Positions 7,415 through 62,784 of a stretch of DNA of 64,000 nt are shown here, one piece after another. Below the pieces are notes generated by a model. The model searched no databases, was not told the origin of the DNA, and saw only the letters and a list, made by a program, of their open reading frames with translations. The first letter of the stretch is position 1. Each line of letters opens with the position of its first letter. Both the position numbers and the translations under genes were made by a program. Location of the stretch: the NCBI GenBank assembly GCA_011364965.1, contig RDOB01000002.1, positions 403,317 to 467,316 of the forward strand. Direction: 5' to 3'. Source of the DNA: Candidatus Heimdallarchaeota archaeon. Lineage in GTDB: Archaea > Asgardarchaeota > Heimdallarchaeia > Hodarchaeales > Hodarchaeaceae.

Positions 7415-7440
7415 GAAAATGGAAATATATCATTGGTGAT

Positions 7441-9522: not shown

Positions 9523-9636
9523 AAATAAGTCAATAAAGGTCTATTCACCAACTTTTTTTCTTTATTTGAATATAAAAACCTGAAACTTAAAAAGGTGAAG
9601 AGAAGGATTATTGGATGAACAAAAACTAGATTCAAG

Positions 9637-10299: not shown

Positions 10300-10320
10300 T
10301 CTGTTTCGAGGCGTTAGATT

Positions 10321-11322: not shown

Positions 11323-11356
11323 AATTCTCAATTCTATTATTCGTTGGAACATAATA

Positions 11357-28700: not shown

Positions 28701-30023
28701 TTGTACGATTATTGGAGTGTCGTTTTCCTCATAAATGTAATCAAAGATGGTGCAAATCTCTACTTTTGTGCAGATTTGGAATCAGTAGAAACAGGTAACT
28801 ATATCGCAGACGCATATGTTTATCTATACGGTGTACCAGACGGTTTATTAAATATCACCCTCAACTTTCGTGGCTCTCGCCTCTATAACTCTGGTTTCTC
28901 TGGACAGGTTCGAATTTCATATTATTATCTTGTAGAAACCACTGAATGGATGGAACTTCAGAGAAAATATCCTGATTTCATTCTTGATGGTACTTATTCA
29001 TTCAGTGACTTTTCTCCAAGTTATATTGACCTCACAAATGTTTGGCCATTATCTGGAAGTATTTTCCTTAAAAACGAAAATACAGGTGTCGGTTTTGGTT
29101 TTGAGACATCTGATAACGAAGATGTAAGCTGGATAACTGTGGAGATTTGGATTGATGATGTATATGAAAAAAGTATTAGTTTGTATTCTAGTAAGTCCCA
29201 TAGCCTTAACTATGAAGAATGGGGCGACATTGAGCTCACATTCGATCGTGGAAGCAGATGGGAACTTGTAGTCAATGTTTATGGAACTGAAGGATCCGAA
29301 AGAACATATACCATCATTTACTTCGTGATTGGGGGTCCAGTGTTCTTTGAATTCCGTGCAAATATCTCTGCAGTTATGCTTGGTGGAACGATCAAATTCA
29401 CTGCTGATGTATATGATGTAGATGGAATAGCAAGCGTTACACTTCATATTGAGGGTACTGAAGTTCCAATGGCTTTTGAAAGCAATTCCACTTGGGGTGA
29501 ATATTGGTTCGTTGAATATACTTTCAATACTGTTGGGCAATTTGCAGTTTATGCTACAGCTGAGGATAGTACAGGGATGATAGGAATGTCCGCGGAGCGT
29601 ACTATATATGTCAATGATGGCCCTGAGATTATATCGGTTACAGTGTCTCCTGATAATACAGTTGATGTGGGTGAAGAGGTCACTTTTGTAGTTCAAATAC
29701 GTAAATCGGACGCAATTATCACAAGCGTAACATTAGAAGTCGTGGACAACAAAGGAAACAAATATATCGATGATTTTATTCTATCAACACAAAATAACGA
29801 AACACTTACTTATACTGCAAAATTTACTCCTCAGAAAGTCGGAACACACGTTTGTACGATCCGTGCATTAACTACAAAAAACCAAGTATCAAGTGCTGAA
29901 GAAATTCTTACAGTACTTGGAACAGAAACAATCAATGTCACCCCTGGTTTTGATTTCTTTGTAGCGCTCTGTCTTTTGTCACTAATTCCAACAATAGAAA
30001 AAGCTCGGAGAAAAAAGGATTAA
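25758..30023 (+). CDS. Giant modular cell-surface protein (1421 aa) with a signal/anchor helix, tandem ~120-135-aa modules, Ig-like C-terminal domains and a PGF-CTERM-type tail
   Basis: N-terminal WKFLLISMILLLVGG. Repeated module core F(D/E)xPPxxxTGxF..D.D.DG.FD(Y/F)LVVxIEV..xxxGxY. C-terminal ..NVTPGFDFFVALCLLSLIPTIEKARRKKD. Many N-x-S/T sequons. Confidence 0.8.
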   Translation: MNKIKMGFKMGKWKFLLISMILLLVGGSTALSTFSSNLVTSERVKETSILLSPLQGNYILPETYSPPRLVITSEPTVNAMADHTMSLRGTNDSLRFSVMFTADETAHYWMHARLYDNTESTIIIESDSWGETIIAGNTRTVIFDFCGYIINEAGFDGPYAVYLDFNMELSNGTTIHIYGDEITPYENVHWTKPYLATDFAVYPIIINSVTPNYIDTDNGLYEWVDVELDLTVNIKDDYWFDANFRFTGTGSPEDAYTRQYLTVGTHTVTLKFATWDFAQYSVSAETMMLSYLYIRHDTSPSWGVFEAWDYYTTGSTYSSSDFDTPPIVLTGRFWEDTESNWDLDGDGKFDYYKVIAEVDKLRVEDGQFRLYANLCNETGYGISGGWAEYNSDAFQLNNIEPVNVTFVFNGIDIYRNKLFNSRLLLNNLQGYYSYNTPNWDDWFSFSDTWLSPTYYNFTAFEGPTAFLTGNFYDYGLDTDGGGFDYLVVEIEVDVLEAREFGFYGDIHANDRYQYASMSYTFTSTGVQTVSLQFEAFEIYRSGIVNTPVTLYISLEQHNPYVYLQGMSVDLSNYTYSDFNPPHAQFFIPAAFSEYTFDSTDPDTTWDELKIVVPLQVNKAGYYYVYGTLRNPVTNQDRSFSSTYAYFNVGNESTITLSFPSAWFWAQHTNTSYILSYVQITETDSSGNSLRSWDTIYNAYTTSIYDSTDFDAPPAYITGNFYEWTVDKDSDGDFDFLVVAIEIETTLSGLNVELDANLQTSVYDRGTYNYTSLNYVGRHNISMFWDATQLWDTQSETENYTINFRMYDTYNWILLDQQNYITHAYSWYQWDPPGITFTGNVSENAYDADYPVDGKYDFIEISVEVQVTQAGYYNLEGSIYAYDGGDSAWFYADYQYYSVGIHWITTKAVNYAWVRNHLDGTGFYISYMYLHEQISGFETILQDYDESDHDFSRIYYHSEFDQLDAWVVSIINNFVVDTNNDSLYDYWSVVFLINVIKDGANLYFCADLESVETGNYIADAYVYLYGVPDGLLNITLNFRGSRLYNSGFSGQVRISYYYLVETTEWMELQRKYPDFILDGTYSFSDFSPSYIDLTNVWPLSGSIFLKNENTGVGFGFETSDNEDVSWITVEIWIDDVYEKSISLYSSKSHSLNYEEWGDIELTFDRGSRWELVVNVYGTEGSERTYTIIYFVIGGPVFFEFRANISAVMLGGTIKFTADVYDVDGIASVTLHIEGTEVPMAFESNSTWGEYWFVEYTFNTVGQFAVYATAEDSTGMIGMSAERTIYVNDGPEIISVTVSPDNTVDVGEEVTFVVQIRKSDAIITSVTLEVVDNKGNKYIDDFILSTQNNETLTYTAKFTPQKVGTHVCTIRALTTKNQVSSAEEILTVLGTETINVTPGFDFFVALCLLSLIPTIEKARRKKD

Positions 30024-47271: not shown

Positions 47272-47970
47272 ATGTTGAAATATAGCCTCATTATTGGAAA
47301 CTGATTTACTTGGAGCTATAGTACTTTTACTAGTCGGAATAATAGTTTTTGTGCTCATTTTATTGCTCTTTAGAGAGTATATGACGACAAAGAAACCTTA
47401 TCATATGATATGGTATATTAGTTTTTTTTGTCTGTTTTATTTGTCTCTGGTGTGTTAATTATACTCTTTGGTTAGGGAGACACCTTCGGGAATCCTCTCG
47501 TCTCTCCAATCGCAGCCTTAATACATGCTGGAATAGCAATAGGTCTTGTATATGCTGTTAGGCCTGATATGAAATACGGGTTATTCTATGCTGTTTATTG
47601 CATTGTTTTAATCGGATTATTAGCTGTTATGAAATATAATATCTTATTGTCTAGAATGACCTCAGTTACACTAATGACAGTGCATATTCCATCGGGATTA
47701 ATTATCTCATTTCTTCCCCTATATACAGCATTCTTAACAAAAGAAACAGAATGAATAAAAGCTTTTTTCAGAATTGGAGAATTACTAATATCTTTCAGTG
47801 GTGTTTAATTAGCTATTACTATTGTTGTGACTAGAAATGTGGATCCTCTATTATTTATTTTTGATATTCTCCCCTACCTACTTTTAGTGGTTGGAATGCC
47901 ATTCGTTTTGAGATTAGGGTTACCATCTAAATGGAAAATCGGTATACCAGTAATTAGCGGGCTATTTTAA
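47272..47970 (+). pseudogene. Decayed membrane-protein gene (frameshift plus in-frame stops)
   Basis: A hydrophobic translation continues across TAG 47473, TGA 47752 and TAA 47806 in one frame. That frame reads ..GDTFGNPLVSPIAALIHAGIAIGLVYAV..MKYGLFYAVYCIVLIGLL..IKAFFRIGELLISFSGV..LAITIVVTRNVDPLLFIFDILPYLLLVVGMPFVL... The upstream part (47294-47455) is in another frame, joined near the T8 run at 47422-47429. Confidence 0.35.
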
Positions 47971-48113: not shown

Positions 48114-48599
48114 TTATTTTGAATTATAATGCCATTGAAATAATTCACGTGCTTTATCCAAATCGATCATAGCTACACTATTATGAATACAGCTGAAGGA
48201 ACGACATTTTTTCTGTTCAATTCCTCCCCATTTAATACCCCATCCCTTTAACACGGCAAATATAACACTAAAATCCTCGCCCTTTTTGGTTAATGTGTAT
48301 TGAACGCGAACAGGGATTTTATCACTTAATACTTCTCGTTTGACAATTTCATTCTCTTCTAATAAAGAAAGACCTTCCGAAAGAACACGTGCTGAGATTT
48401 TTTCTCCTTGTATACCTAAAATTTCAGACTGAAAGTCTGAAAAAAACATTTTAGTGTTTAATAATAACCCACATATGATATAAGCAATCCATTTTTTACC
48501 TAAAAGCTTCATTGGAAGCATTGCAGCACATTCATCTACCTCTTGGTCTATTGTTTCATCTCTCAAATCATTTTCGTTCATTATTACGAGATCCTTCAT
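48114..48599 (-). CDS. HxlR-family winged-helix transcriptional regulator
   Basis: LLGKKWIAYIICGLL and PVRVQYTLTKKGEDFSVIFAVLKGWGIKW are typical of HxlR. Confidence 0.75.
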   Translation of the reverse strand: MKDLVIMNENDLRDETIDQEVDECAAMLPMKLLGKKWIAYIICGLLLNTKMFFSDFQSEILGIQGEKISARVLSEGLSLLEENEIVKREVLSDKIPVRVQYTLTKKGEDFSVIFAVLKGWGIKWGGIEQKKCRSFSCIHNSVAMIDLDKARELFQWHYNSK

Positions 48600-48839: not shown

Positions 48840-50438
48840 ATGAATAATAATGAAGAAGAAATATTAATGCGCCAGAGTAAGTGGAGCGGTCGTAGAGTCA
48901 TATTACTCTACTGGTTAGCAATTGTTTTCGTTGGGACAAGCACTGCTGCAGGTCTTGGTGTAACAATTCTCAAGCCGACATATAAAATAGCAGCAGAAGA
49001 TCCTCATGCCGGAATTACAGAACCCTGGTATCCAGAAGATTGCATTGCTTGCCACCCTGACGAAGTTGCAGGCTGGAACACCACTTGGCACGCGCAAATA
49101 GTCGGAGAATATGATCCGTTAGATCCGTTATTGAACGGAAGTAAGGTATCATTTAATAGTACACATTATTGGCGAACTCCAAATACATTACCACCACCAT
49201 CAACCATTACATATTGGACTTACAATCAGCTATTCAACGCCTCTGGACAACAGTGCTGTATGACAACACGATGGTACAATGTTACTCTTATAAACGCGAC
49301 CACTGGAGAAGTCTTATATTTCAATACTACTCTATCTGCTGAACTTGGAGGCTATACAAGCAACATTTGGGACATTGGCGTTTCTTGTGCAGCATGTCAT
49401 CCGAACCCTGGAGAAATCAGTCTGAGTCATACCTATTGTGCAAGTTGTCACTTAGCTGGTGGAAATCAAGGGTTACACTATACGCGAAGTGGTCACTATA
49501 ACGCTCTAAACGACCTATTGGCGAGTACTGATCTCACGACACAAGTATTATTGCATTATACTGGATACTGGTATTATATTGGTCAGAGTACTTACATGCA
49601 AGTTAGCGATCTTGAAACAGGTGAATATTATCGCATTACTTGCGTTACTTGTCATGATCCACACGATTCAACAGTTAATGCAGGTGATGTGTCAAATAAA
49701 ATGAGTCCATGGACAAACCCTTATACAGGAGAAACCTTTGGACCAGGTGGAAGCCAACTACGAGCAGCTACTGTCAATGAACTCTGTGGTATTTGTCATC
49801 ATATCAATCTCAATACTAGTACAGGAGCATTCCTAGATCCAAGCAATCATACTGCATTAAGCTGTACTAATTGTCACGGTTACTCGTACACTCCAGCTAC
49901 CAATACGACTGGTGCACTAGTTCACAGTTGGGTATTTGGTGGACCCGAACCCGGAGATGCTTGTGGTGTATGCCATTATGAAAATGCTTCCACTGTTTAT
50001 GCTCAGATGCTTGCATATCTAGACCAATTTGGTGATGTTGCCACTTTGAGAGCTGAATATGAAACTAAGTTAGCAGCTGCCGAATTAGCATACAACACAG
50101 CTAATACAACAGAAGGAGCTGATGCTGCGAAGCTAGCTAACGCTTATGCTTTGATTGAAGAAGCTAAAGAATTAGCTGAACGTTCTGCTCTAACTTTCCA
50201 CAATCCTGAATTAGGTACAGCTGTTGAGGAATCGCAGTTATCGCTAGCATTAACAAAACTAGATGAAGCAACAACAGAAGCTTTGGAAGCTCTTCCAACT
50301 ACGACCACAACTACGACCACAACTACAACTGCTGCAACCACCACCACCACTACTACTGCTGCAACATCCGCAATTGGTTTAGTTGCTGTAATGAGCATCT
50401 TAAGTGTTGTAATAGTATTCCGAAGGAAACGACGTTAG
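48840..50438 (+). CDS. Membrane-tethered multiheme c-type cytochrome (seven CxxCH)
   Basis: Heme-binding motifs CIACH, CAACH, CASCH, CVTCH, CGICH, CTNCH and CGVCH. N-terminal hydrophobic helix, helical Ala/Glu-rich stalk, poly-Thr linker, C-terminal TM helix and RRKRR. Confidence 0.85.
   Translation: MNNNEEEILMRQSKWSGRRVILLYWLAIVFVGTSTAAGLGVTILKPTYKIAAEDPHAGITEPWYPEDCIACHPDEVAGWNTTWHAQIVGEYDPLDPLLNGSKVSFNSTHYWRTPNTLPPPSTITYWTYNQLFNASGQQCCMTTRWYNVTLINATTGEVLYFNTTLSAELGGYTSNIWDIGVSCAACHPNPGEISLSHTYCASCHLAGGNQGLHYTRSGHYNALNDLLASTDLTTQVLLHYTGYWYYIGQSTYMQVSDLETGEYYRITCVTCHDPHDSTVNAGDVSNKMSPWTNPYTGETFGPGGSQLRAATVNELCGICHHINLNTSTGAFLDPSNHTALSCTNCHGYSYTPATNTTGALVHSWVFGGPEPGDACGVCHYENASTVYAQMLAYLDQFGDVATLRAEYETKLAAAELAYNTANTTEGADAAKLANAYALIEEAKELAERSALTFHNPELGTAVEESQLSLALTKLDEATTEALEALPTTTTTTTTTTTAATTTTTTTAATSAIGLVAVMSILSVVIVFRRKRR
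50298..50367 (+). repeat. Thr-codon (ACN) low-complexity tract with a perfect 12-nt tandem duplication
   Basis: ACTACGACCACA occurs twice (50298-50309 and 50310-50321), followed by ACC/ACT runs. The tract encodes the TTTTTTTTTTAATTTTTTTAAT linker. Confidence 0.6.
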
Positions 50439-50474
50439 CTAGATTGGCGTATATCAAATCGATATCCTTAAGCA

Positions 50475-50510
50475 AGAACAGCAGATCTCTGCTGTTCTAT
50501 TGCTTTTTTT
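50475..50510 (+). terminator. Hairpin plus T-run terminator candidate after the cytochrome gene
   Basis: A perfect 10-bp stem pairs AGAACAGCAG (50475-50484) with CTGCTGTTCT (50489-50498). The loop is 4 nt, and T7 follows at 50504-50510. Confidence 0.55.
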
Positions 50511-50721
50511 ATCTGTCGTGATCAAAATTTATCTTGGTTCGGTATTTGCTTTTTGAAGAACCAATAATGATGTCAGTTAAGTCACTCATATTATTTTTTT
50601 CCCAATAAATTCCAATAAATTAATTAATATCACCGTTTAAAACAAATATGGTTAATAAACAATATAATAAGTTCCATATTATTGCAGGTGAGTAGTATTC
50701 AATAAAGAGATGGATTGAATC

Positions 50722-52926
50722 ATGATTCACACTATCGTAAAACATTTAGAAGTTAAAAGACCTATAAAATATTCCTTTCTTGCGTTAATATTAATCACTT
50801 TTTTTTTAGTAAATAATGCACATATTTTACCACAGCAATTTCTAAATGAAAATCTACCTAACCAGAAAAATTATAAGATAAACGTTGAAACAGAGCAAAA
50901 AAATTTTGAAGATCTTTGTTTAAGTAGACTAACTCGAGCAAGTGATTCTGATGTAATTTTTCCTACCTTTCTTTATCTCTCGATCGAAATTGCAAATCTT
51001 CTTATTGAGAATTTATATGATAATGTATCGAATGGATTCTATTTTTCTATTGATGAAGAATGGCGAGAGGTTACTATTAATTCTGAAAAACGAACCTATG
51101 ATAATGCTCAAGCAATATTAGGGTTGTTAAAACTTGCTGAAGCTGTTATTAATCAGACTGAAAGTGATTTTGCGCTAAATATTGCGGAAAGTACAGCTAA
51201 TGGCTTACTTAATAATTTATGGGATCCAGATTTTGACGGTTTCTTTATTAGTCCATCAGATAGATATAAAAAGCCAGGGATTCATGGAAAAGCCATTCAA
51301 GCTTTTTTAGCATTATATGAGGAAACAGGAATCTCTTCTTATCGTGAAACAGCAATTGATACATTGAATTTTATTGATAGAGTAGCTTGGAATGACTCTG
51401 AAGGTTATTATATTTATGTGACATCACACACTGGGTTACCTCTGATCGTGAATCCATATCAAGGGGATCCATATGAACCCCAATCTCTCCGAGTAGATCA
51501 TAATTCAATCATGGGAATTGCATTGCTCGATTTTTATCGTATAGATACCAATTCAACATATTTAACAAAAGCCTGCCGGATCTATGATATTATTAATGAA
51601 ACATGTAGGAATAGCACTACGAATTTATTTTATACAGGTGTGGATAGTCACCATGAAATAGTTTATCCAGAGGCGTCAGACCTCTTCATTAATTCTCTTG
51701 TTCTGGAATTTCTAGCTCAACTCTACAATGTAACAGAGGATCAGAAGTATTATGAGGACTTTTTTATTTTATTGAATACTGTATTACTCAATTTCTGGGA
51801 TAATGATTATGGAGGTTTCATATCTACACGTTCTTCGGGTAATTTTAGCTCCGATGATAGAACTAAATTTACAGAAAGGCAATTTTACGGAATTGAAGCA
51901 CTTGATAAAGCTTATAAGCTCACAAATAACGATCTATATTATAATCTTATTTTAGATACGATCGAAATTCTCAATACAAATCTTTATGACCAAATTAATG
52001 GTGGATACTACCAATTAGCAAATCCAGACGGATCCCAAAGCGGTGATGCAACGTGGAAAATGAAAGTAACTGTTACTCAATCATTAGGTATTTATACATT
52101 AGCAAATATCTGGTTGTATAGCAAACCAAGTGCCCTAAATGTTATTTGGTCACCAACTACTCCACGTCCCCAAGATAAAGTTTCTCTATTAATTGCAGCT
52201 TTTGATCCAGTAGGTATTTCAACAGTCTTTCTGAATTACTCTATTGATGGAAGTAATTTTAAATTATTAGAAATGGTTCCACATCTCGTTAAAAACATGT
52301 TTATATGTAATATTGACCCTCCATATAAAGATGGAACATCTATAAACTTTAATATTATTATTACCAACGCCAATGATGAACAAGTTATTAGAGGTGATTA
52401 CTCCTTCCTCTGGCAATTTGATAGATGGCCTCCTGAGGTTCAAGTGCTTGGATTTTTACCTGGAATAGAAATACCAGTAAACGAAGAATTTACAATTATT
52501 GTTACTGCAAATGATATCCCCTCTCAAGGAAGTGTTAGATATGTTCGTATCCATTATTATCTTACTGAACGCGACGTTAAAAACGTACTTCTTAACCAAT
52601 TTGACGTACATTTATGGAAAATAACCTTTCCTGAGGGGCTTCCTATACCCGGAACTTATACCTATTATTTCGAGTCATCAGATTTAGAATGGAACCCTAG
52701 TTTTAGCCATGTAGATACCTTTACTATTTTAGGAAGCTTAGAGGTTCCGTTCCCTCTATCACAAGTTGTATTTTTCTTACTTTTTATCGGTGTATTTGTC
52801 CCTACTGGATTGTATTCCTATGTTGAATATAAGAAAAAGAGTGCACGGAAGAAATTAAAGGTTATACGTGAAGTTCGTAACAAGAAAATGAGAAGATTGA
52901 ATAAGCGTGGTACGAAAAGAACTTAA
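50722..52926 (+). CDS. Membrane-anchored protein with a probable (alpha/alpha)6-barrel (AGE/DUF255-like) domain, Ig-like domains and a C-terminal TM anchor
   Basis: N-terminal helix FLALILITFFLV. Repeated helical-hairpin motifs (YDNAQAILGLLKLAEA, GKAIQAFLALYEETG, NSIMGIALLDFY, NSLVLEFLAQLYN, QFYGIEALDKAYKLT). C-terminal VVFFLLFIGVFVPTGLYSYV plus a Lys/Arg-rich tail. Confidence 0.5.
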   Translation: MIHTIVKHLEVKRPIKYSFLALILITFFLVNNAHILPQQFLNENLPNQKNYKINVETEQKNFEDLCLSRLTRASDSDVIFPTFLYLSIEIANLLIENLYDNVSNGFYFSIDEEWREVTINSEKRTYDNAQAILGLLKLAEAVINQTESDFALNIAESTANGLLNNLWDPDFDGFFISPSDRYKKPGIHGKAIQAFLALYEETGISSYRETAIDTLNFIDRVAWNDSEGYYIYVTSHTGLPLIVNPYQGDPYEPQSLRVDHNSIMGIALLDFYRIDTNSTYLTKACRIYDIINETCRNSTTNLFYTGVDSHHEIVYPEASDLFINSLVLEFLAQLYNVTEDQKYYEDFFILLNTVLLNFWDNDYGGFISTRSSGNFSSDDRTKFTERQFYGIEALDKAYKLTNNDLYYNLILDTIEILNTNLYDQINGGYYQLANPDGSQSGDATWKMKVTVTQSLGIYTLANIWLYSKPSALNVIWSPTTPRPQDKVSLLIAAFDPVGISTVFLNYSIDGSNFKLLEMVPHLVKNMFICNIDPPYKDGTSINFNIIITNANDEQVIRGDYSFLWQFDRWPPEVQVLGFLPGIEIPVNEEFTIIVTANDIPSQGSVRYVRIHYYLTERDVKNVLLNQFDVHLWKITFPEGLPIPGTYTYYFESSDLEWNPSFSHVDTFTILGSLEVPFPLSQVVFFLLFIGVFVPTGLYSYVEYKKKSARKKLKVIREVRNKKMRRLNKRGTKRT

Positions 52927-52945
52927 GTAATAAGGAGATAATGAC

Positions 52946-55156
52946 GTGTTTTACATTGGTTTTGGAATAGATTTAGGAGCAATTATTCTTATTGTAGCAT
53001 TTCTAGCTTTATTATTGGATGCATTTTTTGTATTAGCCGGGAAATACCTAGAGAAGTGGGAGATTTATTCGGAAATTAGTCTGTTGATAGGAGCTTCAGC
53101 ACTCCTCATTTCTTTTTTCTATTTTGCTTTTTTAATTGTAACCACAGATTTCAATTTTTATTTTGTAAGCGAATATGTGAATAGCAGAATGGATTTTTTC
53201 CTCCGATTGTCAACAATTTGGAGTAGTCAACCTGGGAGTTATTTCTTTTGGGCATTTTTAATTTCTATTATCTATTTCAGCTTTCGAATACTCTTTAGAC
53301 AATTCGCACATGAAGCCATTTTTTGGCGTAGCTTCGTCTTAGCTGCCCTCCACTTAGCTTTACTTGTTTTTTTAACAATAATTAATGATCCTTTTAAATT
53401 AAATAAGGAAGTACCTTTAGATGGACTTGGATTGAATCCTTTATTGATGAATATCTGGAATGTAATTCATCCACCAATTATTTTCATAAGTTATGCTCTT
53501 TGTTTGCTCCCTATGGTTATTGCGATCGCTAGGCTTTCCGTTCTTGAAGATGGTAAAGTACCAGAATTTGAAGGTAAAGAAAAACTTGATGGATTCTTTG
53601 ATTTCACAGTCTCGTTAGCTTGGCTTGCTTTGAGTATAGGTATTATTCTTGGGGCCTATTGGGCCTATATCACTCTTGGTTGGGGAGGATTCTGGGCTTG
53701 GGATCCTGTTGAGACTGCTTCATTAATACCTTGGCTTTTCATAACTTTTTATTTCCATGGCAAACCATTTTTCCGGAAAAAAGATTTTCTAAGCAATTAT
53801 TTAGTAAGTATGGGTTATATTGGAACCTTATTTACTACCTACTTAACACGAAGTGGTGTGGTATCAAGTGTCCATGCTTTTGTACCTAGTGGTACTCTAG
53901 AAAAGATTCTATCTATGTTTATTCCTAAAGATTTCTTCTTAATGAGTATTATTCTCAGAATCATCCCAGACGAAAAGGTACTTTTCATCTTTGGAGGTGT
54001 AATGATAACGTTCCTTCTTCCTCTTATTCTAGGAATTAAAAATAGAGAAATTTTTAGAATCCCAATTGAGTTGAGTAAAGAGGACTTTACAGCTTCCCGT
54101 CATCAGACAACCGCATTAAAAATATCTTTTATATCAGGTTTAATAGGTACTTATATAATCCTATTAGGATTAATAGCACCAGTGATTTATGACCTTTTAG
54201 GTTATATAATTACTTTGAGTTCGAAGGGAATCTCTCCAAGCATTACTATAAGCCAACCTTTCTACAATACTGTAATCACCATTTTTGGCGGGGTTATGTT
54301 AATTGCTCAGTTTTTCTGTACATTTTATCCAAAGATCGCTATTAGACGAAAGTTTCAATTATTAATAGGTGGAGTTGTTGCAGGGATTTTATTTGCAATT
54401 AGTGGCATTCTATATCATAATGGTGTTCTTGCGTCAATGTTAGGGGGAAATAATCCAATTATTACCATTTTAGGTGAATTTTGGACAACTAGTATCAAAG
54501 CTAATTTAGTATTACCTCTCATGTTTCTAGGGATAGTAGGATTAATTATAGAATTTATAAATATAATATTAAAAGATGAAAAAAACCTTCTTCGAAAATC
54601 ATCTCAAACAATGTTGCATTTATCTTTCTTAATAATTCTTGTTGGCGCATTAGTTGCTGCCAACACATCTTTTACAACAAATATAACAGTTCAAAATGGT
54701 ACAGATATGGAAATATCTGGGACAACATTGAGGATCGAAGTTATAAATCTTAGAAAAACAGTACCAGAGTCTGGTTTACATGCCATAGATTATGATACAG
54801 AGTTCATTATCTCTTCAGGAGGTCGTGTATTGGGATATGGTATTAGTAGACTCTATGTGGATCATTTTAATCGTGTAGGGCATCAAGTGACAATAATTAG
54901 TAGTTTTCTTAGTGACATTTACATCATAACAATGAATGTTGCAGAGAATCCCATATATGGGACGTTCGATTTTTCTGCTCTTCAGATAAAAATTATTCCA
55001 TATGTAAATTTACTTTGGATTGGGTGTTTCTTGCTTATCTTTGCGATTTTTCCTTTAACAATTGGCAAGTTTCTTTCCCTGAAGGAGATTTTCAAAATTG
55101 AGGAAGAAATAACCGATGAGACTTTAAATAAAGGTGATAAGGATGATCAAAACTAG
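52946..55156 (+). CDS. ccmF: Cytochrome c-type biogenesis protein CcmF (heme lyase component)
   Basis: WWD-type motif WGGFWAWDPVETASLIPWL. Polytopic, 736 aa. AAGGAG lies upstream of the GTG start. Confidence 0.85.
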   Translation: MFYIGFGIDLGAIILIVAFLALLLDAFFVLAGKYLEKWEIYSEISLLIGASALLISFFYFAFLIVTTDFNFYFVSEYVNSRMDFFLRLSTIWSSQPGSYFFWAFLISIIYFSFRILFRQFAHEAIFWRSFVLAALHLALLVFLTIINDPFKLNKEVPLDGLGLNPLLMNIWNVIHPPIIFISYALCLLPMVIAIARLSVLEDGKVPEFEGKEKLDGFFDFTVSLAWLALSIGIILGAYWAYITLGWGGFWAWDPVETASLIPWLFITFYFHGKPFFRKKDFLSNYLVSMGYIGTLFTTYLTRSGVVSSVHAFVPSGTLEKILSMFIPKDFFLMSIILRIIPDEKVLFIFGGVMITFLLPLILGIKNREIFRIPIELSKEDFTASRHQTTALKISFISGLIGTYIILLGLIAPVIYDLLGYIITLSSKGISPSITISQPFYNTVITIFGGVMLIAQFFCTFYPKIAIRRKFQLLIGGVVAGILFAISGILYHNGVLASMLGGNNPIITILGEFWTTSIKANLVLPLMFLGIVGLIIEFINIILKDEKNLLRKSSQTMLHLSFLIILVGALVAANTSFTTNITVQNGTDMEISGTTLRIEVINLRKTVPESGLHAIDYDTEFIISSGGRVLGYGISRLYVDHFNRVGHQVTIISSFLSDIYIITMNVAENPIYGTFDFSALQIKIIPYVNLLWIGCFLLIFAIFPLTIGKFLSLKEIFKIEEEITDETLNKGDKDDQN

Positions 55157-55565
55157 AAATTTGCTTATCTCTGGATTGATTATTTCTGTATGTGTATTCG
55201 CATTATTTTTTCTGTTATTCAATACTTCTATCCCAATATTTACTGTGAAAGAGTTAATAGACCATCCTAGACCTGAATCATTATTAAATCATAAAATTCA
55301 ATTAATAGGTATTGTGGGAACAATAGATACTTCAGGATTTTTACTATACGATCCTGAAGATCAAACTAATGCAACTTTGATTATTTACATTGAAGCTATA
55401 AATGTTACTAAACCCGGAGGATTCGTGATCGGAAAAACCATTCTTGTTGAAGGACAACTAACATCTATTTCTGGGGTATGGACTTTAAAGGCCTCTATGA
55501 TCAGTACTAAATGTCCCTCAAAATATGATGGAGGAGCTGAAATAGGAGAAGAAATTGATGGCTAG
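55134..55565 (+). CDS. ccmE: Heme chaperone CcmE, variant type with a CXXXY heme-binding motif
   Basis: N-terminal TM anchor, an OB-fold-sized domain, and the C-terminal STKCPSKYDG motif in place of the canonical HxxxY. Confidence 0.75.
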   Translation: MIRMIKTRNLLISGLIISVCVFALFFLLFNTSIPIFTVKELIDHPRPESLLNHKIQLIGIVGTIDTSGFLLYDPEDQTNATLIIYIEAINVTKPGGFVIGKTILVEGQLTSISGVWTLKASMISTKCPSKYDGGAEIGEEIDG

Positions 55566-56238
55566 TAGATTAAAAGAAAATCCATTTTGGATATTTTTGC
55601 TTTTTCTATCGTGTTTAATGATTATAAACTTCTTTTTAGTATATATCTCGATAAAATCATTTCAAGGATTTACTGTATCAGGACGTCCAATCTTTTACAT
55701 GGTTTCTTTTGCTTTTTCTACATATGTTTGTTTTGGAATTGTATTATTAAGTAGCATTCTTTATTTGTGGAAAAAAAGTTTTCTTTTTGATCTTTTAGTT
55801 GTTGCTGGAGCACAAGTGGGTGTAGTTACGGGAGCTATAACAATTTTAGTAGGAATGATTTGGTCATATGTCGAATGGGGGTACTTCTGGCAATGGGAGC
55901 CAAGACAAACAACAACGTTAATAATGTGGATGGCTTATATAGGATTACTTATATTTCGTGAGATGCTTGATGAAAATTATCCTGAAAAACGAGGGACATT
56001 AACATCAATATTTGGAATTGTAAGCTTTCCATCTGTACCTTTATCAAACTACGTGGTTGGTGCTTTACACCCTCCTCCACAACAAACAACATTAGAAGAA
56101 GGATTAGGAATGCTTTTAATGTTGAATTTTCTTTTAATTGGTGCAATTTGCGTATTACTGGTATATCTAACCTATAGGACAAATGAAATAGACTTTAAAC
56201 TTAAAAAAATTCGAAAAATAAAAATGGAGGCGTTTTAA
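55558..56238 (+). CDS. ccmC: Heme exporter protein CcmC
   Basis: WWD motif WGYFWQWEPRQTTTL. Six TM helices. The start overlaps the ccmE stop. Confidence 0.85.
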   Translation: MASRLKENPFWIFLLFLSCLMIINFFLVYISIKSFQGFTVSGRPIFYMVSFAFSTYVCFGIVLLSSILYLWKKSFLFDLLVVAGAQVGVVTGAITILVGMIWSYVEWGYFWQWEPRQTTTLIMWMAYIGLLIFREMLDENYPEKRGTLTSIFGIVSFPSVPLSNYVVGALHPPPQQTTLEEGLGMLLMLNFLLIGAICVLLVYLTYRTNEIDFKLKKIRKIKMEAF

Positions 56239-56270
56239 TAATTTTTTTTAAATAGCAAGGAGTTGTTATT

Positions 56271-56426
56271 ATGGCAAATTTCATTGATGAACTATTAGGA
56301 TCTGAATTAAACTTGATGTTTTTTATCTCAATAACTGTTTGGATAATATTATTTTTATATCTATATTATATACACAATAAGTTAGGATCACTGAAAAAAG
56401 AATTAAGCAGTTTGAAAGATGATTGA
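56271..56426 (+). CDS. CcmD-like small single-TM protein, 51 aa. Not in the supplied track.
   Basis: My own translation: MANFIDELLGSELNLMFFISITVWIILFLYLYYIHNKLGSLKKELSSLKDD. AAGGAG lies 8 nt upstream. It has one TM helix followed by a charged tail, as in CcmD. Confidence 0.45.
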   Translation: MANFIDELLGSELNLMFFISITVWIILFLYLYYIHNKLGSLKKELSSLKDD

Positions 56427-56507
56427 TAGAGGAATTTTAAGTTATTTATTAACATATAGTATTTAATTAACTATTTACTGAGAACACAGAGGAGATGATT
56501 ATAAACT

Positions 56508-57209
56508 TTGAATACTCCTCCCAGACCTGTCGTTAGACTCACTAATATTTCGAAAACATATGGTTTCGTTCAAGCCTTGAAAAATATAAACTTAGATATC
56601 AATCAAGGGGAAATTGTAGGTTTGGTGGGAAATAATGGAGCTGGGAAGAGCACACTTCTGAAAATAATTGCTCTACTAGTAAAACCCGCAGAAGGAATAA
56701 TTGAGCTTTTTAATAGGCAAGTTGATGACGAGATTCACTCTTTCAAGAAGAATTTAGGGATCCTGTTAAATTCTCCTTTTTTTTATGAGGATTTAACTGG
56801 TCGTGAAAATTTTCATTTTTTCCTGCGAATGAAAAAACAAGTAAAGCATCCCCAAAAAGTAGTTCAGGATATTATTGATCAATATGGATTGAAATTATTC
56901 ATAGACCGTCCTTATTACGAGTTATCAACTGGGATGATGAAAAAATTGGAGATTTTAAGAACTATATCCCCAGATTTTCCTTTACTACTTCTTTTAGATG
57001 AACCCTTTAGCGGATTAGATACTGAAAATAAGAAATTCCTCTCAAATTTAATTACCAATAAAGGATCAAAAAATACTGTGATTCTTTGTTCACATGATTT
57101 TAACATCGTAAATAACCTTTGTAGTAAAATTGTATTACTTGAAAGAGGGAAAATTAAGAAAATTTTCATGCCAACAGAATATAATCACCTTCTAGCTCAT
57201 TTTACTTAA
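56508..57209 (+). CDS. ccmA: Heme-export ABC ATPase CcmA
   Basis: Walker A GNNGAGKSTLLK, degenerate signature LSTGMMKKLE, Walker B LLLLDEPFSGLD. The call is supported by its position within the ccm cluster. Confidence 0.75.
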   Translation: MNTPPRPVVRLTNISKTYGFVQALKNINLDINQGEIVGLVGNNGAGKSTLLKIIALLVKPAEGIIELFNRQVDDEIHSFKKNLGILLNSPFFYEDLTGRENFHFFLRMKKQVKHPQKVVQDIIDQYGLKLFIDRPYYELSTGMMKKLEILRTISPDFPLLLLLDEPFSGLDTENKKFLSNLITNKGSKNTVILCSHDFNIVNNLCSKIVLLERGKIKKIFMPTEYNHLLAHFT

Positions 57210-57230
57210 TTTTGAGAGGGAAAAACGAAT

Positions 57231-57911
57231 ATGATAAGTGATATATTGATTTTAGTCCGAAAAGATGTGTTATTAGAATTTAGAAAAAGAGAAACCATTT
57301 ATTCGATGGGTTTATTTACCTTTTCTTCAATCCTAATTTTTTCTGCTTTATTAAATTTTATAGATGCTCCTTTAGAAACAAAAAATGGAATATCCATTAC
57401 TTGTCTATTATTTATTATAACTTTCTCTGTGATGCTTGGACTTACTTCAATATTCTCTCGCGAAATTAAGAATAATTCGATTTATCGTCTCCTTTCATTA
57501 TCTATTAAACCTCAAGTAATATTTTTGTCGAAATTTGTATATTTATTTTTAATGACAGGTTTTATTGAGATCTTTGCTTTTATTTTAGCAATTATATTTT
57601 TAAAAATAGACTTTCAAGTTAATATTTTAGTATATTTCATTTTTCTGACGATAGGTACCTTAGATCTAACTATTGCAGGATGTATTGTAGCTTTTTTGAC
57701 ATTATATGCTAAATCAAAATCATTAGCTGTTCCTATCTTATTCTTTCCTTTGGTCCTTCCATCAGTTCTTATTGAAACACAGGTTTCGTTGAATATGGTT
57801 TTAATGAATGATATAAATTATATGATAACAAATTTATTGATTCTTTTTTTTCATGGAGTAATAATACTTGCTTTCGTATTACTGGTAGCTGAAGAGCTTA
57901 TTCAAGACTAA
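57231..57911 (+). CDS. ccmB: Heme exporter membrane protein CcmB
   Basis: Six TM helices. It is collinear with E. coli CcmB as I recall it (RKDVLLEFRKRETI; FSREIKNNSIYRLLSLSIKPQVIFLSKFV; FFPLVLPSVLI). Confidence 0.7.
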   Translation: MISDILILVRKDVLLEFRKRETIYSMGLFTFSSILIFSALLNFIDAPLETKNGISITCLLFIITFSVMLGLTSIFSREIKNNSIYRLLSLSIKPQVIFLSKFVYLFLMTGFIEIFAFILAIIFLKIDFQVNILVYFIFLTIGTLDLTIAGCIVAFLTLYAKSKSLAVPILFFPLVLPSVLIETQVSLNMVLMNDINYMITNLLILFFHGVIILAFVLLVAEELIQD

Positions 57912-58002: not shown

Positions 58003-58944
58003 TTACTTTCTAAGGTTAGATCTTTGATTTTTACGTAGTCGTTTTTGGTAGAGACATAACGTTATAGTTAACGTTATCAGAAAAGTCGATAATAAAAATC
58101 CAGGTGTTCGACGGGCAGGAGGAGAAGAAGTGGTGGTTGTACTGGTCGGCGCAATACTAACTTCGCTAGAATTTGAAGTGGCCGTAAACCTATAGAAAAC
58201 ATTAGCCCAGGATCCAGCGTCATTTTCAGCGTAGAGTCTTAGATCATGGATCGAATCATCAGCAGGAAGAGTGATATCATAGGGAGCATCAAGAGTCTCA
58301 TTAACTAGTGCATTATCCCAATTATACAATACTTGAGATATAAGTGCATTAGGATCTTCAATTGAGAAATCGATTGTCGATCCACCGAGGATGATTGAAT
58401 TATTTGTAGGATAATTAAGTGTGACAATAGGTGGTGGGATACCTACTCTAAAGATAAATACTCCTGAAACCCAATTGTTTGAATAATCTTCTGCATAAAG
58501 GTATAAAGTATGTAAACCATTAGTTTCTGGTAATGTAAATTCATAGATATCGATCTCACTTTTCAGGTCGTGGACTTCAAGACTGCTGTTAGACGAGGCT
58601 GTATCCCATGAATAAAGAATTTGTAACATTTCATACATAAAATTGTCATCAGTAATCTTTATGGAGATAATTGTTCCTCCAAGATTAATTGAGTATTGTT
58701 CAGGGGAGATTAGTGTTAATAGAGGAGGGGTAGAATCCGTATGATCGCAACAAGCATCTTCAACTCTATATTCATATAGAATTATTACTTCTGAATTGTG
58801 AATATTATTCATATTCTCTTTTGCATCATTATGATTCGCTTTCAGTAATAAAGTTGTATTTGTTAAAAATATGCTACCAACCAAAAATATGGAAAAAAGA
58901 ATTATTGAGATTAAAAGAGATGTTCGGGTAATTTTTTGTAACAA
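58003..58944 (-). CDS. Secreted/surface protein with two tandem ~95-aa beta-rich repeats and a PGF-CTERM-type tail
   Basis: N-terminal helix LLISIILFSIFLVGSIFL. Repeats begin at PPLLTLISPEQYSINLGGTIISIKITDDN and at PPPIVTLNYPTNNSIILGGSTIDFSIEDPN. C-terminal TSTTTTSSPPARRTPGFLLSTFLITLTITLCLYQKRLRK. Confidence 0.6.
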   Translation of the reverse strand: MLQKITRTSLLISIILFSIFLVGSIFLTNTTLLLKANHNDAKENMNNIHNSEVIILYEYRVEDACCDHTDSTPPLLTLISPEQYSINLGGTIISIKITDDNFMYEMLQILYSWDTASSNSSLEVHDLKSEIDIYEFTLPETNGLHTLYLYAEDYSNNWVSGVFIFRVGIPPPIVTLNYPTNNSIILGGSTIDFSIEDPNALISQVLYNWDNALVNETLDAPYDITLPADDSIHDLRLYAENDAGSWANVFYRFTATSNSSEVSIAPTSTTTTSSPPARRTPGFLLSTFLITLTITLCLYQKRLRKNQRSNLRK

Positions 58945-59440: not shown

Positions 59441-60172
59441 ATGAATTTCATAGGTGGATTTAAAAAAAGTAAGATCAGTATAAAAATTCTATATATTTTA
59501 ATCGGTGCTGCTATAGCAATTGGTATTGTAAGCGGAATTGGAAGTACCTGTACTACATTCGATCCTATTTGGTGGAGAAATCCATCATTTTCAATTATTG
59601 GAGATTTACAAATTATCTTCATTATAGCTTATATTGCCACTTGGTTTACAGCAATTTTATGGATAGTTTTAATTTGGGCTTTATCAGGTGGGAAAGATTG
59701 GTTTTACAAGATAGCTCTCTCAAATAGCGTTATTGGAATCTTGGGCGGCGCAATTCCTGTGGGAATCCTATTATACGAATATTGGGCAAGTTATGGCAAT
59801 TCTGGCATGAGATTTACTCCTTCATGGTTTCGAACTATAATAAATTTGGTTTTATTTATTGTCCTTGTGATTCCAAAAATACGAACTGAAATCCAAAATA
59901 CCATCAAAAGTAATAGTTCAGCTATAGGAGGTTCTTCAGATTTAGGAACAGGATTAGCCCAATTGGCGTTTATTTTATTTGGTTTTGGAGTTGTTATGAT
60001 ACTACAGCCATTCATCATGCCTGCAACACATATCATTGATGGAGTAAACGTAGGATATGACTTTGAAGCGCTTCAATTCTATTGTGGTTTATTTTCTATT
60101 GTCCTTGGATTAATAACCCGGATCTCAGAACGCATTTATTCAAAAATTCAGTCTAGCAGAGTTATCTACTAA
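59441..60172 (+). CDS. Hypothetical polytopic membrane protein (about 6 TM helices)
   Basis: Hydrophobic helices throughout. ATG 59441 (MNFIGG) is preferred over the track's TTG at 59408. First gene of a tightly spaced three-gene unit. Confidence 0.5.
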   Translation: MNFIGGFKKSKISIKILYILIGAAIAIGIVSGIGSTCTTFDPIWWRNPSFSIIGDLQIIFIIAYIATWFTAILWIVLIWALSGGKDWFYKIALSNSVIGILGGAIPVGILLYEYWASYGNSGMRFTPSWFRTIINLVLFIVLVIPKIRTEIQNTIKSNSSAIGGSSDLGTGLAQLAFILFGFGVVMILQPFIMPATHIIDGVNVGYDFEALQFYCGLFSIVLGLITRISERIYSKIQSSRVIY

Positions 60173-60187
60173 ATAAGAGGTATAATT

Positions 60188-61822
60188 ATGAATTCAATCG
60201 AGATGAATGTAACTAAAGATGGTAAATGGAATTGGTTGAAATATAAGCTATTCTATGGCGGAACTTTCAAAGGAATGATCACCTTCACTATTGTATATTT
60301 ATTTGTGATCACCCTCTTTCTTTCAACTTTTTCTAAACCAGTCGTGGACCTTCTTGGAGCACCATTACTACCATTTTACTTTAGTGGCTCTACTGAAGAT
60401 TTAATGGCGTTTTCTGCCCGTGTTGTGCTATTGTATCATGCAATAACGGTGCCTTTCCTTGCAATTTGTACATACTTTGTATTAGAGTACTGCGATGTCC
60501 GAGAAAAATTAAAATCCCGAATTAAATGGCCATTATTTTTCGGAAGTCTTTTAGCATCAGGAGCTGGAATGTTATATGCTTACTTTTTCACTGAAGCTTG
60601 GATAATACACGGTTTATACCTAGTAGGATTATCACTCTGTTTTTATGCAGGTGTTATCCTCCTTATTGCTGTCTTTCCGTCCAAAAATTTTCCTAAGAAT
60701 TGGACTAAACAAGAAAATAAAAATAATATTTTATTTGAGCAATTAGCTTTAGTAACGATAACTATTTGTATCTTAGTGACAGTATTTCTTGGAGCAGCAA
60801 TCGGAGCTTATTTTGGCGTTGATGAGATGTCTGCATTCTTAGCAGAATATTTCCTTCGAGATCCTATAACAGAGCTTCCTTATCCCTATTTGGTCGCAGA
60901 TCTCTTTGTAGATGGGATTAAAGGCCACTTACATGCAATGTTGGGTCAAATCGATGTTGTCATCCTCCTTGTGGTATTCAGATATACAATGGGTGATATG
61001 CCTAAAGGAAAATGGCATCTGCTAGCTATGATTCTAGCGATTCCTGGGGCTTTTTTTATGTCATTGGGTTGTTGGTTTGTTACCTTCAAATCTGTCGTTC
61101 CAATAGTCACATTTGGAATTTTACAGGAATGGCCATTTGATATGCACTACTTAATCTATGTCGGAGCAGCAATTCTCGTCACTGTAGGCGCGATGTTGGC
61201 CCTTATGGGTTGGAATAAAATCGCTAGGAAAGAACTGGGTGATGCTTATGAATCAGCTACTTGGGGTACCCGTATAAAAGTAATATTCAAAGATCCTGTT
61301 AAATTTACTCTCTATTTCCTATTCTTATGGGTAAATATCGTGATGACATTTAGTGGTATCTTCCTAGCATTAAGTCTATATGATGAATCTGTGCTAGCTA
61401 GAGTTCTTCCATTTTTGTCGTTCCGATCGGGTCCTCTTGCAGTTGAAACTACTGTTGCTCGTGGTCACTGGCACATTTTAGGAGCTTTATCAGCTGTTAT
61501 ATTATTCTTACTCTTCGTTGATATTCTTCGTATAGAAGGTAAGACACGTAAGGTAATGGGATGGCTAATGCTGGCAGGAAGTATTTTCGCTTTCCTTTCT
61601 GGAATGCTTTATCTCTATGTTCCCCACCTTGATCAGAATTGGGCAAATAATCACGAGTTGTACGTTGACGTGCAGGAATTCTGGCAAGTGAATGCTCCAT
61701 GGCTACCCCTCCTTTTAGATTTTGGAATACTTCTTATTGGCATAGCACTTGTCATCTTCTGCTTCTATGAATTGATTCAAATCATCAACGGAAGACGAGA
61801 TATCCATGCATTTCCCGAATGA
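60188..61822 (+). CDS. Hypothetical 12-TM membrane protein with conserved-looking histidine pairs
   Basis: About 12 predicted helices. His84 is in TM2, H247-x-H249 at the start of TM6, H277 in TM7, and H427-x-H429 at the start of TM10. The stop overlaps the ATG of the heme O synthase gene (ATGA). Confidence 0.6.
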   Translation: MNSIEMNVTKDGKWNWLKYKLFYGGTFKGMITFTIVYLFVITLFLSTFSKPVVDLLGAPLLPFYFSGSTEDLMAFSARVVLLYHAITVPFLAICTYFVLEYCDVREKLKSRIKWPLFFGSLLASGAGMLYAYFFTEAWIIHGLYLVGLSLCFYAGVILLIAVFPSKNFPKNWTKQENKNNILFEQLALVTITICILVTVFLGAAIGAYFGVDEMSAFLAEYFLRDPITELPYPYLVADLFVDGIKGHLHAMLGQIDVVILLVVFRYTMGDMPKGKWHLLAMILAIPGAFFMSLGCWFVTFKSVVPIVTFGILQEWPFDMHYLIYVGAAILVTVGAMLALMGWNKIARKELGDAYESATWGTRIKVIFKDPVKFTLYFLFLWVNIVMTFSGIFLALSLYDESVLARVLPFLSFRSGPLAVETTVARGHWHILGALSAVILFLLFVDILRIEGKTRKVMGWLMLAGSIFAFLSGMLYLYVPHLDQNWANNHELYVDVQEFWQVNAPWLPLLLDFGILLIGIALVIFCFYELIQIINGRRDIHAFPE

Positions 61823-62784
61823 TTAATAAAATCGTAAAGGATGCCGAAATGACAACAATTAATGGGGATAATGCAAATAACAAAAGATCCCCTTTTCTTT
61901 TTTTATCTTTTCAAATGTATTTGCATTTGATAAAGGCTAAACAAACAATTTTATTAGTCTATACAACAGTTTTTGCATATCTGATAACTGCTTTACAATT
62001 CACATTCGATATTTTTACATTTTTATGGGTTTTTATCTCCGTTACATTAGCTGTATCGGGGAGTACCTTGTTTAATATGTATATTGATCGTGATATTGAT
62101 GCTATTATGGAAAGAACACAAAATCGACCTCTTCCCAGTGGAAAAATTGCTCCATCCACAGTTCTAAAGCATGGTTTCTTTTTTATTGGAGCAGGTCTTA
62201 TATTCTCTTTGTTGTATCTTAATATTTTGACAACATTTGTGATTTTTCTAGGATTTTTTTTTGATGTTATTATCTATTCCCTAATTCTCAAAAGAAGAAC
62301 CAAATATTCCATAATATTTGGAGGTATTGCTGGAGGTTTACCTGCGTTAGCTGGAAGGACAGCTGTTATAAATAGTGTTGATTTAATTGGTATTTTGCTC
62401 GGGTTATTTGTAGTAGCATGGATTCCATTACACATTCTCACTTTAGCTCTTCTACCAATAAATTTGAGAGATTATACAAAAGCAAAAATACCAATGTGGC
62501 CTGTTGCAAGTGGTGAAAGACAAACAATCCGAATAATTACTTTATCAGCAATCATTTCAGCCATTTTAACCATTATTACTGGATTTTTATTAGAGATTGA
62601 ATTAATATGGTTAATTCCATTACTTTTTTTTGGTTCATATATTCTAGCTATTGCTCTAAGAAATCTTTCATCGCCTACTACTCCTAGAACATTTAAACTC
62701 TTTAAAGCAGCATCAATTTATATGGCTCTTACGTTTGTCTTATTATTTATTGGCTTACTAATAACCATTGCTCCATATAGATAA
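61819..62784 (+). CDS. ctaB: Protoheme IX farnesyltransferase (heme O synthase), UbiA family
   Basis: FNMYIDRDIDAIMERTQNRPLPSG (NxxxDxxxD plus RT.NRPL.G). Eight to nine TM helices. Confidence 0.85.
   Translation: MINKIVKDAEMTTINGDNANNKRSPFLFLSFQMYLHLIKAKQTILLVYTTVFAYLITALQFTFDIFTFLWVFISVTLAVSGSTLFNMYIDRDIDAIMERTQNRPLPSGKIAPSTVLKHGFFFIGAGLIFSLLYLNILTTFVIFLGFFFDVIIYSLILKRRTKYSIIFGGIAGGLPALAGRTAVINSVDLIGILLGLFVVAWIPLHILTLALLPINLRDYTKAKIPMWPVASGERQTIRIITLSAIISAILTIITGFLLEIELIWLIPLLFFGSYILAIALRNLSSPTTPRTFKLFKAASIYMALTFVLLFIGLLITIAPYR

Follow-up and report, generated by a model that had tools for sequence, protein, structure and literature searches.

We analysed a 64,000-nucleotide stretch of DNA from Candidatus Heimdallarchaeota archaeon (assembly GCA_011364965.1, contig RDOB01000002.1, positions 403,317 to 467,316), hereafter the window, in which positions 59441-62784 hold three membrane-protein genes on the forward strand, the last of them a haem O synthase gene. 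The first open reading frame (ORF), at 59441..60172 (+), encodes protein A, a 243-aa membrane protein with about six transmembrane (TM) helices that belongs to no known family and is a conserved partner of the protein encoded next to it. The second ORF (60188..61822, +) encodes protein B, which is 544 aa long and has 12 TM helices, seven conserved histidines and, as judged from an AlphaFold2 model compared with solved structures by Foldseek, a predicted fold like that of haem-copper oxidase subunit I. The third (61819..62784, +) encodes protein C, a 321-aa haem O synthase (a protohaem prenyltransferase of the CtaB/CyoE type), which was recognised with the TIGR01473 and UbiA profiles. The ATG at 59441 gives protein A its 243 residues; an alternative TTG at 59408 is also open and would give 254. 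The ATG form is 100% identical to P0381, a deposited Heimdallarchaeota protein that is named only as a 'hypothetical protein'. The sequence at the junction of A and B reads TAA, 15 nt and ATG, and B and C overlap in an ATGA through which C is predicted to be translationally coupled to B. The window as a whole has a G+C content of about 0.33.

An earlier note on this DNA, made from the letters alone, had described three tightly packed co-directional membrane-protein genes ending in a haem O synthase gene, with no recognisable oxidase subunit I or II in the window and no cupredoxin or CuA site in the upstream 6-TM protein, and our results agree with it on each of these points. The packing is confirmed by the 15-nt spacer and the ATGA overlap. 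Protein C scored 224.7 bits against TIGR01473, above the curated cut-off of 210.3, with residues 33-311 of its 321 covered and with them the whole UbiA fold; it matched UbiA (PF01040) at 1e-45, and the next UbiA family scored about 55 bits. Genes for haem O synthase serve as markers of aerobic respiration but are also present in lineages that have no recognisable oxidase, and in E. coli cyoE sits within the cyoABCDE operon. No subunit I of an oxidase or a nitric oxide (NO) reductase (NOR) was found among the window ORFs of at least 60 aa with a profile of 22 A-, B- and C-type oxidases and NORs, and no window ORF carries a CuA motif. Neither A nor B has a Pfam or NCBIfam match. The AlphaFold2 model of A (pLDDT 86.7) had no credible match when its fold was compared with the PDB (best probability 0.28, TM-score 0.24), so that neither motif, Pfam hit nor fold makes A a cupredoxin or CuA protein.

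Fold, histidines and relatives of protein B

The model of B, predicted from a 78-sequence alignment without templates, has a pLDDT of 90.0, a pTM of 0.91 and 12 long helices, in keeping with the count of about 12 that had been read from the sequence. When this model was compared with the PDB by Foldseek, the top 23 matches were all subunit I of haem-copper oxidases or NO reductases (ba3, qNOR, bovine, yeast and plant aa3, and cbb3). Their probabilities were mostly 0.95-1.0, with four at 0.75-0.85, and their TM-scores mostly 0.45-0.52, with three at 0.35-0.37. The next matches, to MurJ, G-protein-coupled receptors and MATE proteins, had probabilities of at most 0.35 and nearly all had TM-scores below 0.2; transporters had TM-scores of at most 0.18. 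A comparison of the predicted structure with haem-copper oxidases had been proposed in the earlier note as a check on its suggestion, and the predicted fold of B matched only subunit I of the haem-copper oxidases and NORs. As modelled, the resemblance is specific yet loose. Lysine and arginine residues number 15 on the predicted inner loops versus 5 on the outer loops, as in the positive-inside rule, and the predicted topology of B is oxidase-like, with the conserved His, Glu and Arg residues all placed by the model towards the outer face.

The thirds of B match one another in profile comparisons (S2-S3 with a probability of 94%, S1-S3 with 82%), corresponding to three 4-helix repeats, and so do the thirds of canonical oxidase/NOR subunit I taken from a 22-sequence alignment (H1-H3 97%, H2-H3 85%). 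The 4-helix repeats of canonical oxidases can be detected, then, from profile-profile sequence comparison alone and not just from structure. Sequence-detectable repeats had been considered as a trait that separates B from oxidases, and this was rejected as the canonical oxidases have them too. Between the two families the best repeat matches were those of the HxH-carrying repeats, with probabilities of 31% and 13%.

The reference used for direct sequence comparison consisted of 22 subunit I sequences, namely bovine COX1, verified with 1OCC, together with oxidases of the A, B and C types, cNOR and qNOR encoded on plasmids; a ba3-type oxidase query had given only relatives of at least 77% identity, and the plasmid-borne genes were used instead. 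All six canonical histidines align in this reference. Comparison of the B family with the resulting profile by hhalign gave probabilities of 8.6-9.9% and P values of 0.003-0.004 in two alignments of similar score. The in-register alignment (432 columns, score 33.2, P 0.0039, probability 8.6%) pairs H247 with bovine H240, H320 with H290 and H427/H429 with H376/H378, and puts H84 on the same helix as bovine H61, about 6 residues off. The second alignment (score 33.9) is displaced by exactly four helices, a displacement that arises because of the internal repeats. Among the controls, the reversed profile scored 23.5 and the 30 block shuffles scored 18.6-32.2, none of the 30 reaching the native score, and NnrS, CcmF, CtaB and an unrelated 12-helix protein scored 17-21.5 against B. 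No preference for an oxidase subfamily was seen with single oxidases or with separate A, B, C, cNOR and qNOR alignments (scores 18-29).

Among the 78 aligned B relatives there was no relevant Pfam family, no COX1 match at E<=1 and no NnrS match, and a B profile searched against the PDB sequences returned no oxidase, its sole return being a spurious match to an Mrp antiporter (E 0.0037). In the profile searches against COX1, NorB and NnrS that had been suggested, membership of B in these families could not be demonstrated from sequence: there is no COX1 or NnrS Pfam match, and the hhalign comparison with the oxidase/NOR profile is marginal (P about 0.004). We regard the sequence evidence for homology between B and the oxidases as consistent but marginal, so that the case is carried mainly by the fold prediction and by where the histidines lie. 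NnrS is a haem- and copper-containing membrane protein of denitrifiers, and like B it is a multi-helix membrane protein with conserved histidines whose hosts meet NO. As an identity for B, NnrS (PF05940) was rejected: in hhalign, NnrS of S. meliloti scored 17.6, the level of unrelated membrane proteins, and none of the 78 relatives (0/78) had the Pfam match.

Residues were counted in 212 distinct, near full-length B members aligned to the family profile. H84, H247, H427 and H429 were never substituted in these members, and three further histidines are near-invariant, namely H141 in helix 4 (205/212), H249 (207/212) and H320 at the start of helix 8 (207/212). The earlier note had named six histidines (84, 247, 249, 277, 427 and 429), all of which are present and most of which are conserved, and had overlooked two conserved ones, H141 and H320. 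The exception among the six is H277 in helix 7, which is His in 105 of the members and Tyr in 68; its assignment as the helix VII ligand is not upheld by such counts. The statement that the canonical HH of helix VII is missing from B was correct. Other conserved residues are Y83, Y132, R78, E220, M251, N383, E420 and W428. The helix boundaries of the model put E220 (197/212) into the loop that precedes helix 6 and E420 (204/212) at the beginning of helix 10. Four residues after H247 there is a Met (M251) in 197 of the 212, and the only near-invariant tyrosines are Y83 in helix 2 and Y132 at the end of helix 3. Where the most divergent members lose H249 or H320 they lose both (four of four cases), and seven of them lack H141; from this pattern of loss H249, H320 and H141 would belong to one site, apart from the four invariant histidines. 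The latter would fit two haems placed as in oxidases.

Two distant members of the family, P0188 and P0260, are fused to C-terminal PD40/beta-propeller domains. P0260 is without H141, H249 and H320, P0188 is without H141 only, and the two may represent a functionally distinct subfamily.

A word-indexed search returned 111 relatives of B, all of them unnamed and without Pfam domains. Those from Asgard archaea share 38-77% identity with B and come from Heimdall-, Hod-, Hermod-, Thor- and Odin-type metagenome-assembled genomes (MAGs), and at about 30% identity there are relatives from Anaerolineae and other bacteria. A full scan of 1.84 billion representative proteins with a hidden Markov model of the family gave only 318 proteins at E<=1e-3, so that the family appears small and sharply bounded. 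When one genome per species was scanned, B relatives were located in at least 585 genome stretches. The hosts, among the matches listed, are Asgard archaea, Chloroflexota, Aminicenantes, Symbiobacteriaceae, Ignavibacteria, Calditrichaceae, Bacteroidales, Neomarinimicrobiota, Spirochaetota and Clostridia. No description of the B family was found in searches of the literature.

Gene neighbourhoods and partner proteins

Loci around B relatives were collected, 87 in all and 83 without redundancy, and 61 of the 83 extend for at least 2.3 kb downstream of B. In 57 of these 61 informative loci a haem O synthase gene lies downstream of B on the same strand. A ctaB gene on the same strand and no more than 1.5 kb 3' of B accounts for 11 of the 12 Asgard and 45 of the 49 bacterial loci, and locus L029 provides one further linkage that was obscured by overlapping ORF calls. 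The linkage to ctaB, the conservation of which had been raised as a check on the oxidase suggestion, is thus kept across archaea and bacteria. B and ctaB are adjacent in the Asgard loci, at most about 125 nt apart. The B-linked UbiA orthologues in other genomes score 204-225 bits on TIGR01473 and so straddle its cut-off of 210.3, and haem O synthase was the best match of all the linked UbiA proteins tested. No canonical oxidase subunit I was present within 10 kb of B at any locus fetched. The A-B-C arrangement is kept in other genomes far beyond chance.

Protein A has 29 Asgard homologues, all annotated as 'hypothetical', in which C37, K85, W87 and H197 are invariant. It is of the same family as a bacterial 240-aa membrane protein that is encoded after ctaB (hhalign probability 100%, E 5e-69); the family is represented in 33 of the 83 loci, and more distant paralogues of A are encoded upstream of B. 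A second family of accessory membrane proteins, termed comp3, is found beside B in 47 of the 83 loci. The window holds a decayed copy of comp3 at 47288..47970 (+), recovered by tblastn with 60-68% identity to the Asgard members. It has a frameshift in a run of T near 47434, TGA in place of a Trp codon (47752-47754) and TAA in place of a Leu codon (at about 47806), and is either a pseudogene or the product of an assembly error.

In 42 of the 49 bacterial loci a gene for a protein of the FGE-sulfatase fold lies between B and ctaB (for example L004 11458-12357, L006, L033 and L056), and some bacterial proteins are fusions of B with the FGE-fold protein, joined through an extra TM segment. Neither the window nor any Asgard locus has this gene. 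In the bacterial protein, a lipoprotein signal peptide, the lack of the catalytic Cys pair and a best solved match to SUMF2 (E 1.6e-20) together point to an outer-face component that is not an FGE. It resembles SUMF2/pFGE, which are likewise without the catalytic Cys pair, and, as a lipoprotein, PorK. A role as a copper enzyme was considered and rejected, on the grounds of the missing Cys pair and of the inactive SUMF2 being its best match.

Regulatory genes also recur in these neighbourhoods: Crp/Fnr-type regulators are encoded near B in 26 bacterial loci, and 13 of 19 Asgard loci have an HxlR gene no more than 10 kb from B. The window has an HxlR-family transcription regulator at 48114..48599 (-; PF01638, 1.7e-15) that is possibly associated with the cluster. 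Beyond it, on the forward strand, is a haem island (48840-57911) comprising a cytochrome, a six-hairpin protein and a complete system I Ccm set (F, E, C, A and B). The cytochrome (48840..50438, +) is a membrane-anchored heptahaem c-type protein with seven CxxCH motifs and matches to Cytochrome_C7, MtrC and C552; it has an N-terminal TM helix, a Thr-rich linker and a C-terminal TM helix, and is a candidate electron partner of B. It is followed by a 734-aa six-hairpin (GlcNAc 2-epimerase-like) protein (50722..52926, +; PF07221, 6.6e-10), which is syntenic in 5 Asgard loci, and by a CcmF-like cytochrome c haem lyase (52946..55156, +; PF01578, 1.5e-27). Next come a CcmE-like haem chaperone (55134..55565, +), the match of which is weak and below the cut-off (PF03100, 0.0024) and which has a CcmE at the same position in L001, a CcmC-like haem-handling protein (55555..56238, +; PF01578, 3.6e-16), a CcmA-like ABC ATPase (56508..57209, +; PF00005, 2.9e-30) and CcmB (57231..57911, +; PF03379, 40.9 bits versus a cut-off of 24.9). 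The block recurs beside B in five other Asgard loci, and the heptahaem cytochrome is syntenic with B in L001, L002, L008 and L020. Taken over all the loci, multihaem c-type cytochromes lie alongside B in four Asgard loci and the window, and immediately upstream of it in seven bacterial loci.

An oxidase-like reading of B and its alternatives

B is best described as a new, widely distributed and unannotated, very divergent variant of the oxidase/NO-reductase kind. On balance we incline to the view that it is the catalytic subunit of an undescribed, very divergent oxidase- or NO-reductase-like enzyme that uses haem O, and to much the same degree we favour its being a very divergent relative of, or at least a structural analogue to, subunit I of the haem-copper oxidases and NORs. 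With the fold prediction, the conservation of the histidines, the gene linkage and the membrane topology in hand, we infer the cofactors, the metal, the substrate and the electron donor as follows. A, B and CtaB would form the core of an undescribed membrane oxidoreductase, in which CtaB would make farnesylated haem O for B, in parallel to cyoE in cyoABCDE. A low-spin haem would be held between H84 (helix 2) and H429 (helix 10), and a second haem, haem O, would be held on H427. Beside the second haem, H247, H249, H320 and H141, with E220/E420 near, may make up a site for a metal or for a further haem. Electrons would be supplied by quinol or, in Asgard archaea, perhaps by the neighbouring heptahaem c-type cytochrome. 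The substrate would be a small oxidant, O2 or NO being the likeliest, and the redox/stress-type regulators and mostly anaerobic hosts suggest that its reduction could serve scavenging or low-level respiration in anaerobes. The putative accessory subunits are A, comp3 in other genomes and, in bacteria, the outer-face FGE-fold lipoprotein.

With haem-copper subunit I (ba3, 1EHK and 3S8F; A-family aa3/bo3) B shares twelve helices arranged as three 4-helix repeats with both termini inside, and a His in helix 2, an HxH in helix 10 and a His in helix 6, near the outer face; the operon link to the haem O synthase gene is also that of the haem-copper oxidases (cyoABCDE). It differs from them in having no COX1 signature, no helix 7 HH and no helix 6 His-Tyr, and in its extra helix 6 HxH and the conserved histidines on helices 4 and 8. 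The cluster, unlike those of haem-copper oxidases, encodes no subunit II/III homologues, and A, comp3 and the FGE-fold lipoprotein are without known oxidase relatives. The NORs (qNOR 3AYF, cNOR NorB) are among the best structural matches of B and, like it, have no active-site Tyr, a conserved Glu on the outer side (E220 and E420 in B), no obvious cytoplasmic proton path and, possibly, a c-type cytochrome as donor. In contrast to B, they have haem b and not haem O, carry an H...HH set and a helix-6 Glu, and are readily matched by COX1-type profiles; the haem O synthase linkage speaks against haem b3 in B. B resembles the NO reductases in having neither the helix-6 Tyr nor an evident cytoplasmic proton path, and the oxygen reductases in its haem O link.

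A number of findings weigh against the oxidase-like reading. The Foldseek E-values are 0.02 or higher, with a root mean square deviation of about 9 A and a TM-score of about 0.5. No sequence method places B in the oxidase family, the hhalign probability being about 9%, and one of the 30 block shuffles scored 32.2, close to the native 33.2. The HH pair of helix VII is absent; in its place B has H249 in helix 6 and, where helix 8 begins, the single H320. The cross-linked Tyr of helix VI is absent too, with M251 at +4; this is read from sequence positions, and migration of the Tyr in the structure is possible. H247 and H249 stand two positions apart on their helix and could not easily bind one ion together, and the joint loss of H249 and H320 fits a separate site, possibly a third haem, and not a CuB-type centre. 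There is no cupredoxin, CuA or NorC-type partner, copper chaperone genes do not recur near B, and the heptahaem cytochrome is encoded 9 kb upstream of the operon and outside it. At least one genome that carries B also has a canonical oxidase: the B3_Heim MAG (NJBF01), which has B at L009, possesses a canonical cyoABCD operon (10.1101/2025.11.07.685452). The haem O made there need not serve B; ctaB is thus not necessarily an orphan, and B is not simply a replacement for a standard oxidase. In favour of the reading, haem O biosynthesis genes have been reported in all Heimdallarchaeia lineages and complex IV only in some (10.1101/2024.07.04.601786), a wider distribution consistent with haem O having a second client. 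On sequence, B falls outside the haem-copper family as this is defined by the COX1 profile, the helix VII HH, the active-site Tyr and a CuA partner. The suggestion in the earlier note of a divergent oxidase/reductase-like haem protein is thus supported in part, by the predicted fold, by most of the histidines it named and by the linkage to ctaB, and finds no support in the family sequence profile, the HH, the Tyr or a CuA subunit.

Another explanation for the histidine pattern is that B is a non-catalytic multihaem membrane cytochrome, in which two to three bis-His haems (H84-H429, H427-H247 and H249-H320) would carry electrons between the quinone pool and outer-face cytochromes, haem O being only a membrane-anchored cofactor. 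The seven histidines can be sorted into three pairs with one left over, H249 and H320 disappear jointly in divergent members, and B has no conserved active-site Tyr and no HH motif. Partners would be at hand in the heptahaem cytochrome and Ccm genes, which neighbour the cluster both in the window and in 4-5 Asgard loci, and in the multihaem cytochromes upstream of it in 7 bacterial loci; farnesylated haems are known outside the oxidases, in some archaeal quinol-oxidising complexes (PMC12808453). We nevertheless consider this unlikely, since the model puts the conserved histidines at a similar depth near the outer face, so that the haems would not span the membrane as those of an electron wire normally do, most bacterial loci have no cytochrome c nearby, and the sole structural relatives of B are catalytic subunits.

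The tight and often translational coupling of B to the haem O synthase gene would also be expected if B and A together handled haem O, as a chaperone, insertase or modifying enzyme that serves canonical oxidases encoded elsewhere. The Asgard cluster lies in a haem-handling neighbourhood with a Ccm system, and one B-carrying genome does encode a canonical oxidase at another place. A 12-helix fold with seven histidines is, however, far more elaborate than the chaperones known for haem O/A, the Foldseek list shows no similarity to haem A synthase, and B occurs in Thor-, Odin- and Hermod-type MAGs, lineages that are not among the reported carriers of complex IV (10.1101/2024.07.04.601786); we think a handling role quite improbable. 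It is more improbable still, to our minds, that the resemblance to oxidases is a matter of fold convergence or an artefact of prediction, with B a transporter or other haem-free protein and the UbiA enzyme prenylating another substrate. The sequence similarity between B and the oxidases is indeed below standard thresholds of significance, and several of the linked UbiA proteins score just under the cut-off (204-206 versus 210.3). Against this, His predominates among the invariant residues, joined by a few Tyr, Glu, Asn and Trp, which is what one would expect of cofactor ligands and not of a transport path, the Foldseek list is specific to oxidases whereas transporters reach a TM-score of 0.18 at most, and the UbiA proteins are some 150 bits nearer to haem O synthase than to any other UbiA family.

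A bolder form of the oxidase-like reading, which is possible and is put forward here only tentatively, would make B an unrecognised ancient branch of the haem-copper oxidoreductase fold, found in Asgard archaea and many anaerobic bacterial phyla, and acting as a haem O-dependent O2/NO reductase with its own accessory subunits and an active site rebuilt with an HxH in helix 6 and single histidines in helices 4 and 8, but no Tyr or CuA. If B is indeed an oxidase-like partner for haem O, this would explain the presence of haem O synthase in anaerobes, including Asgard lineages without complex IV. Anaerobes would then own an oxidant-consuming enzyme that is invisible to current annotation, and the inference of O2/NO metabolism from the genomes of Asgard archaea and sediment bacteria would change, which bears on scenarios for the origin of eukaryotes. 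B would also provide a new outgroup for the origin of the haem-copper oxidases and NO reductases, which are built on the same three-repeat scaffold. The system is small, with three to five genes, and should be amenable to heterologous expression.

Other genes in the window

The remaining genes of the window are concerned with ordinary metabolism, DNA methylation and transport. A 313-aa surface protein is encoded on the reverse strand at 58003-58944 (-); it has Ig-like (Big_7) repeats and a PGF-CTERM-like tail (TPGFLLSTFLITL...), which suggests processing by an archaeosortase. The ORF at 25758-30023 (+) is 1421 aa long and has no Pfam match at E<=1e-5. At 5192-13492 (+) three DNA methyltransferase genes (one MmeI/Eco57I-like N6 and two N6_N4) are interspersed with PhoU-like and PHO4 phosphate transporter genes, and this region may be a restriction-modification island.

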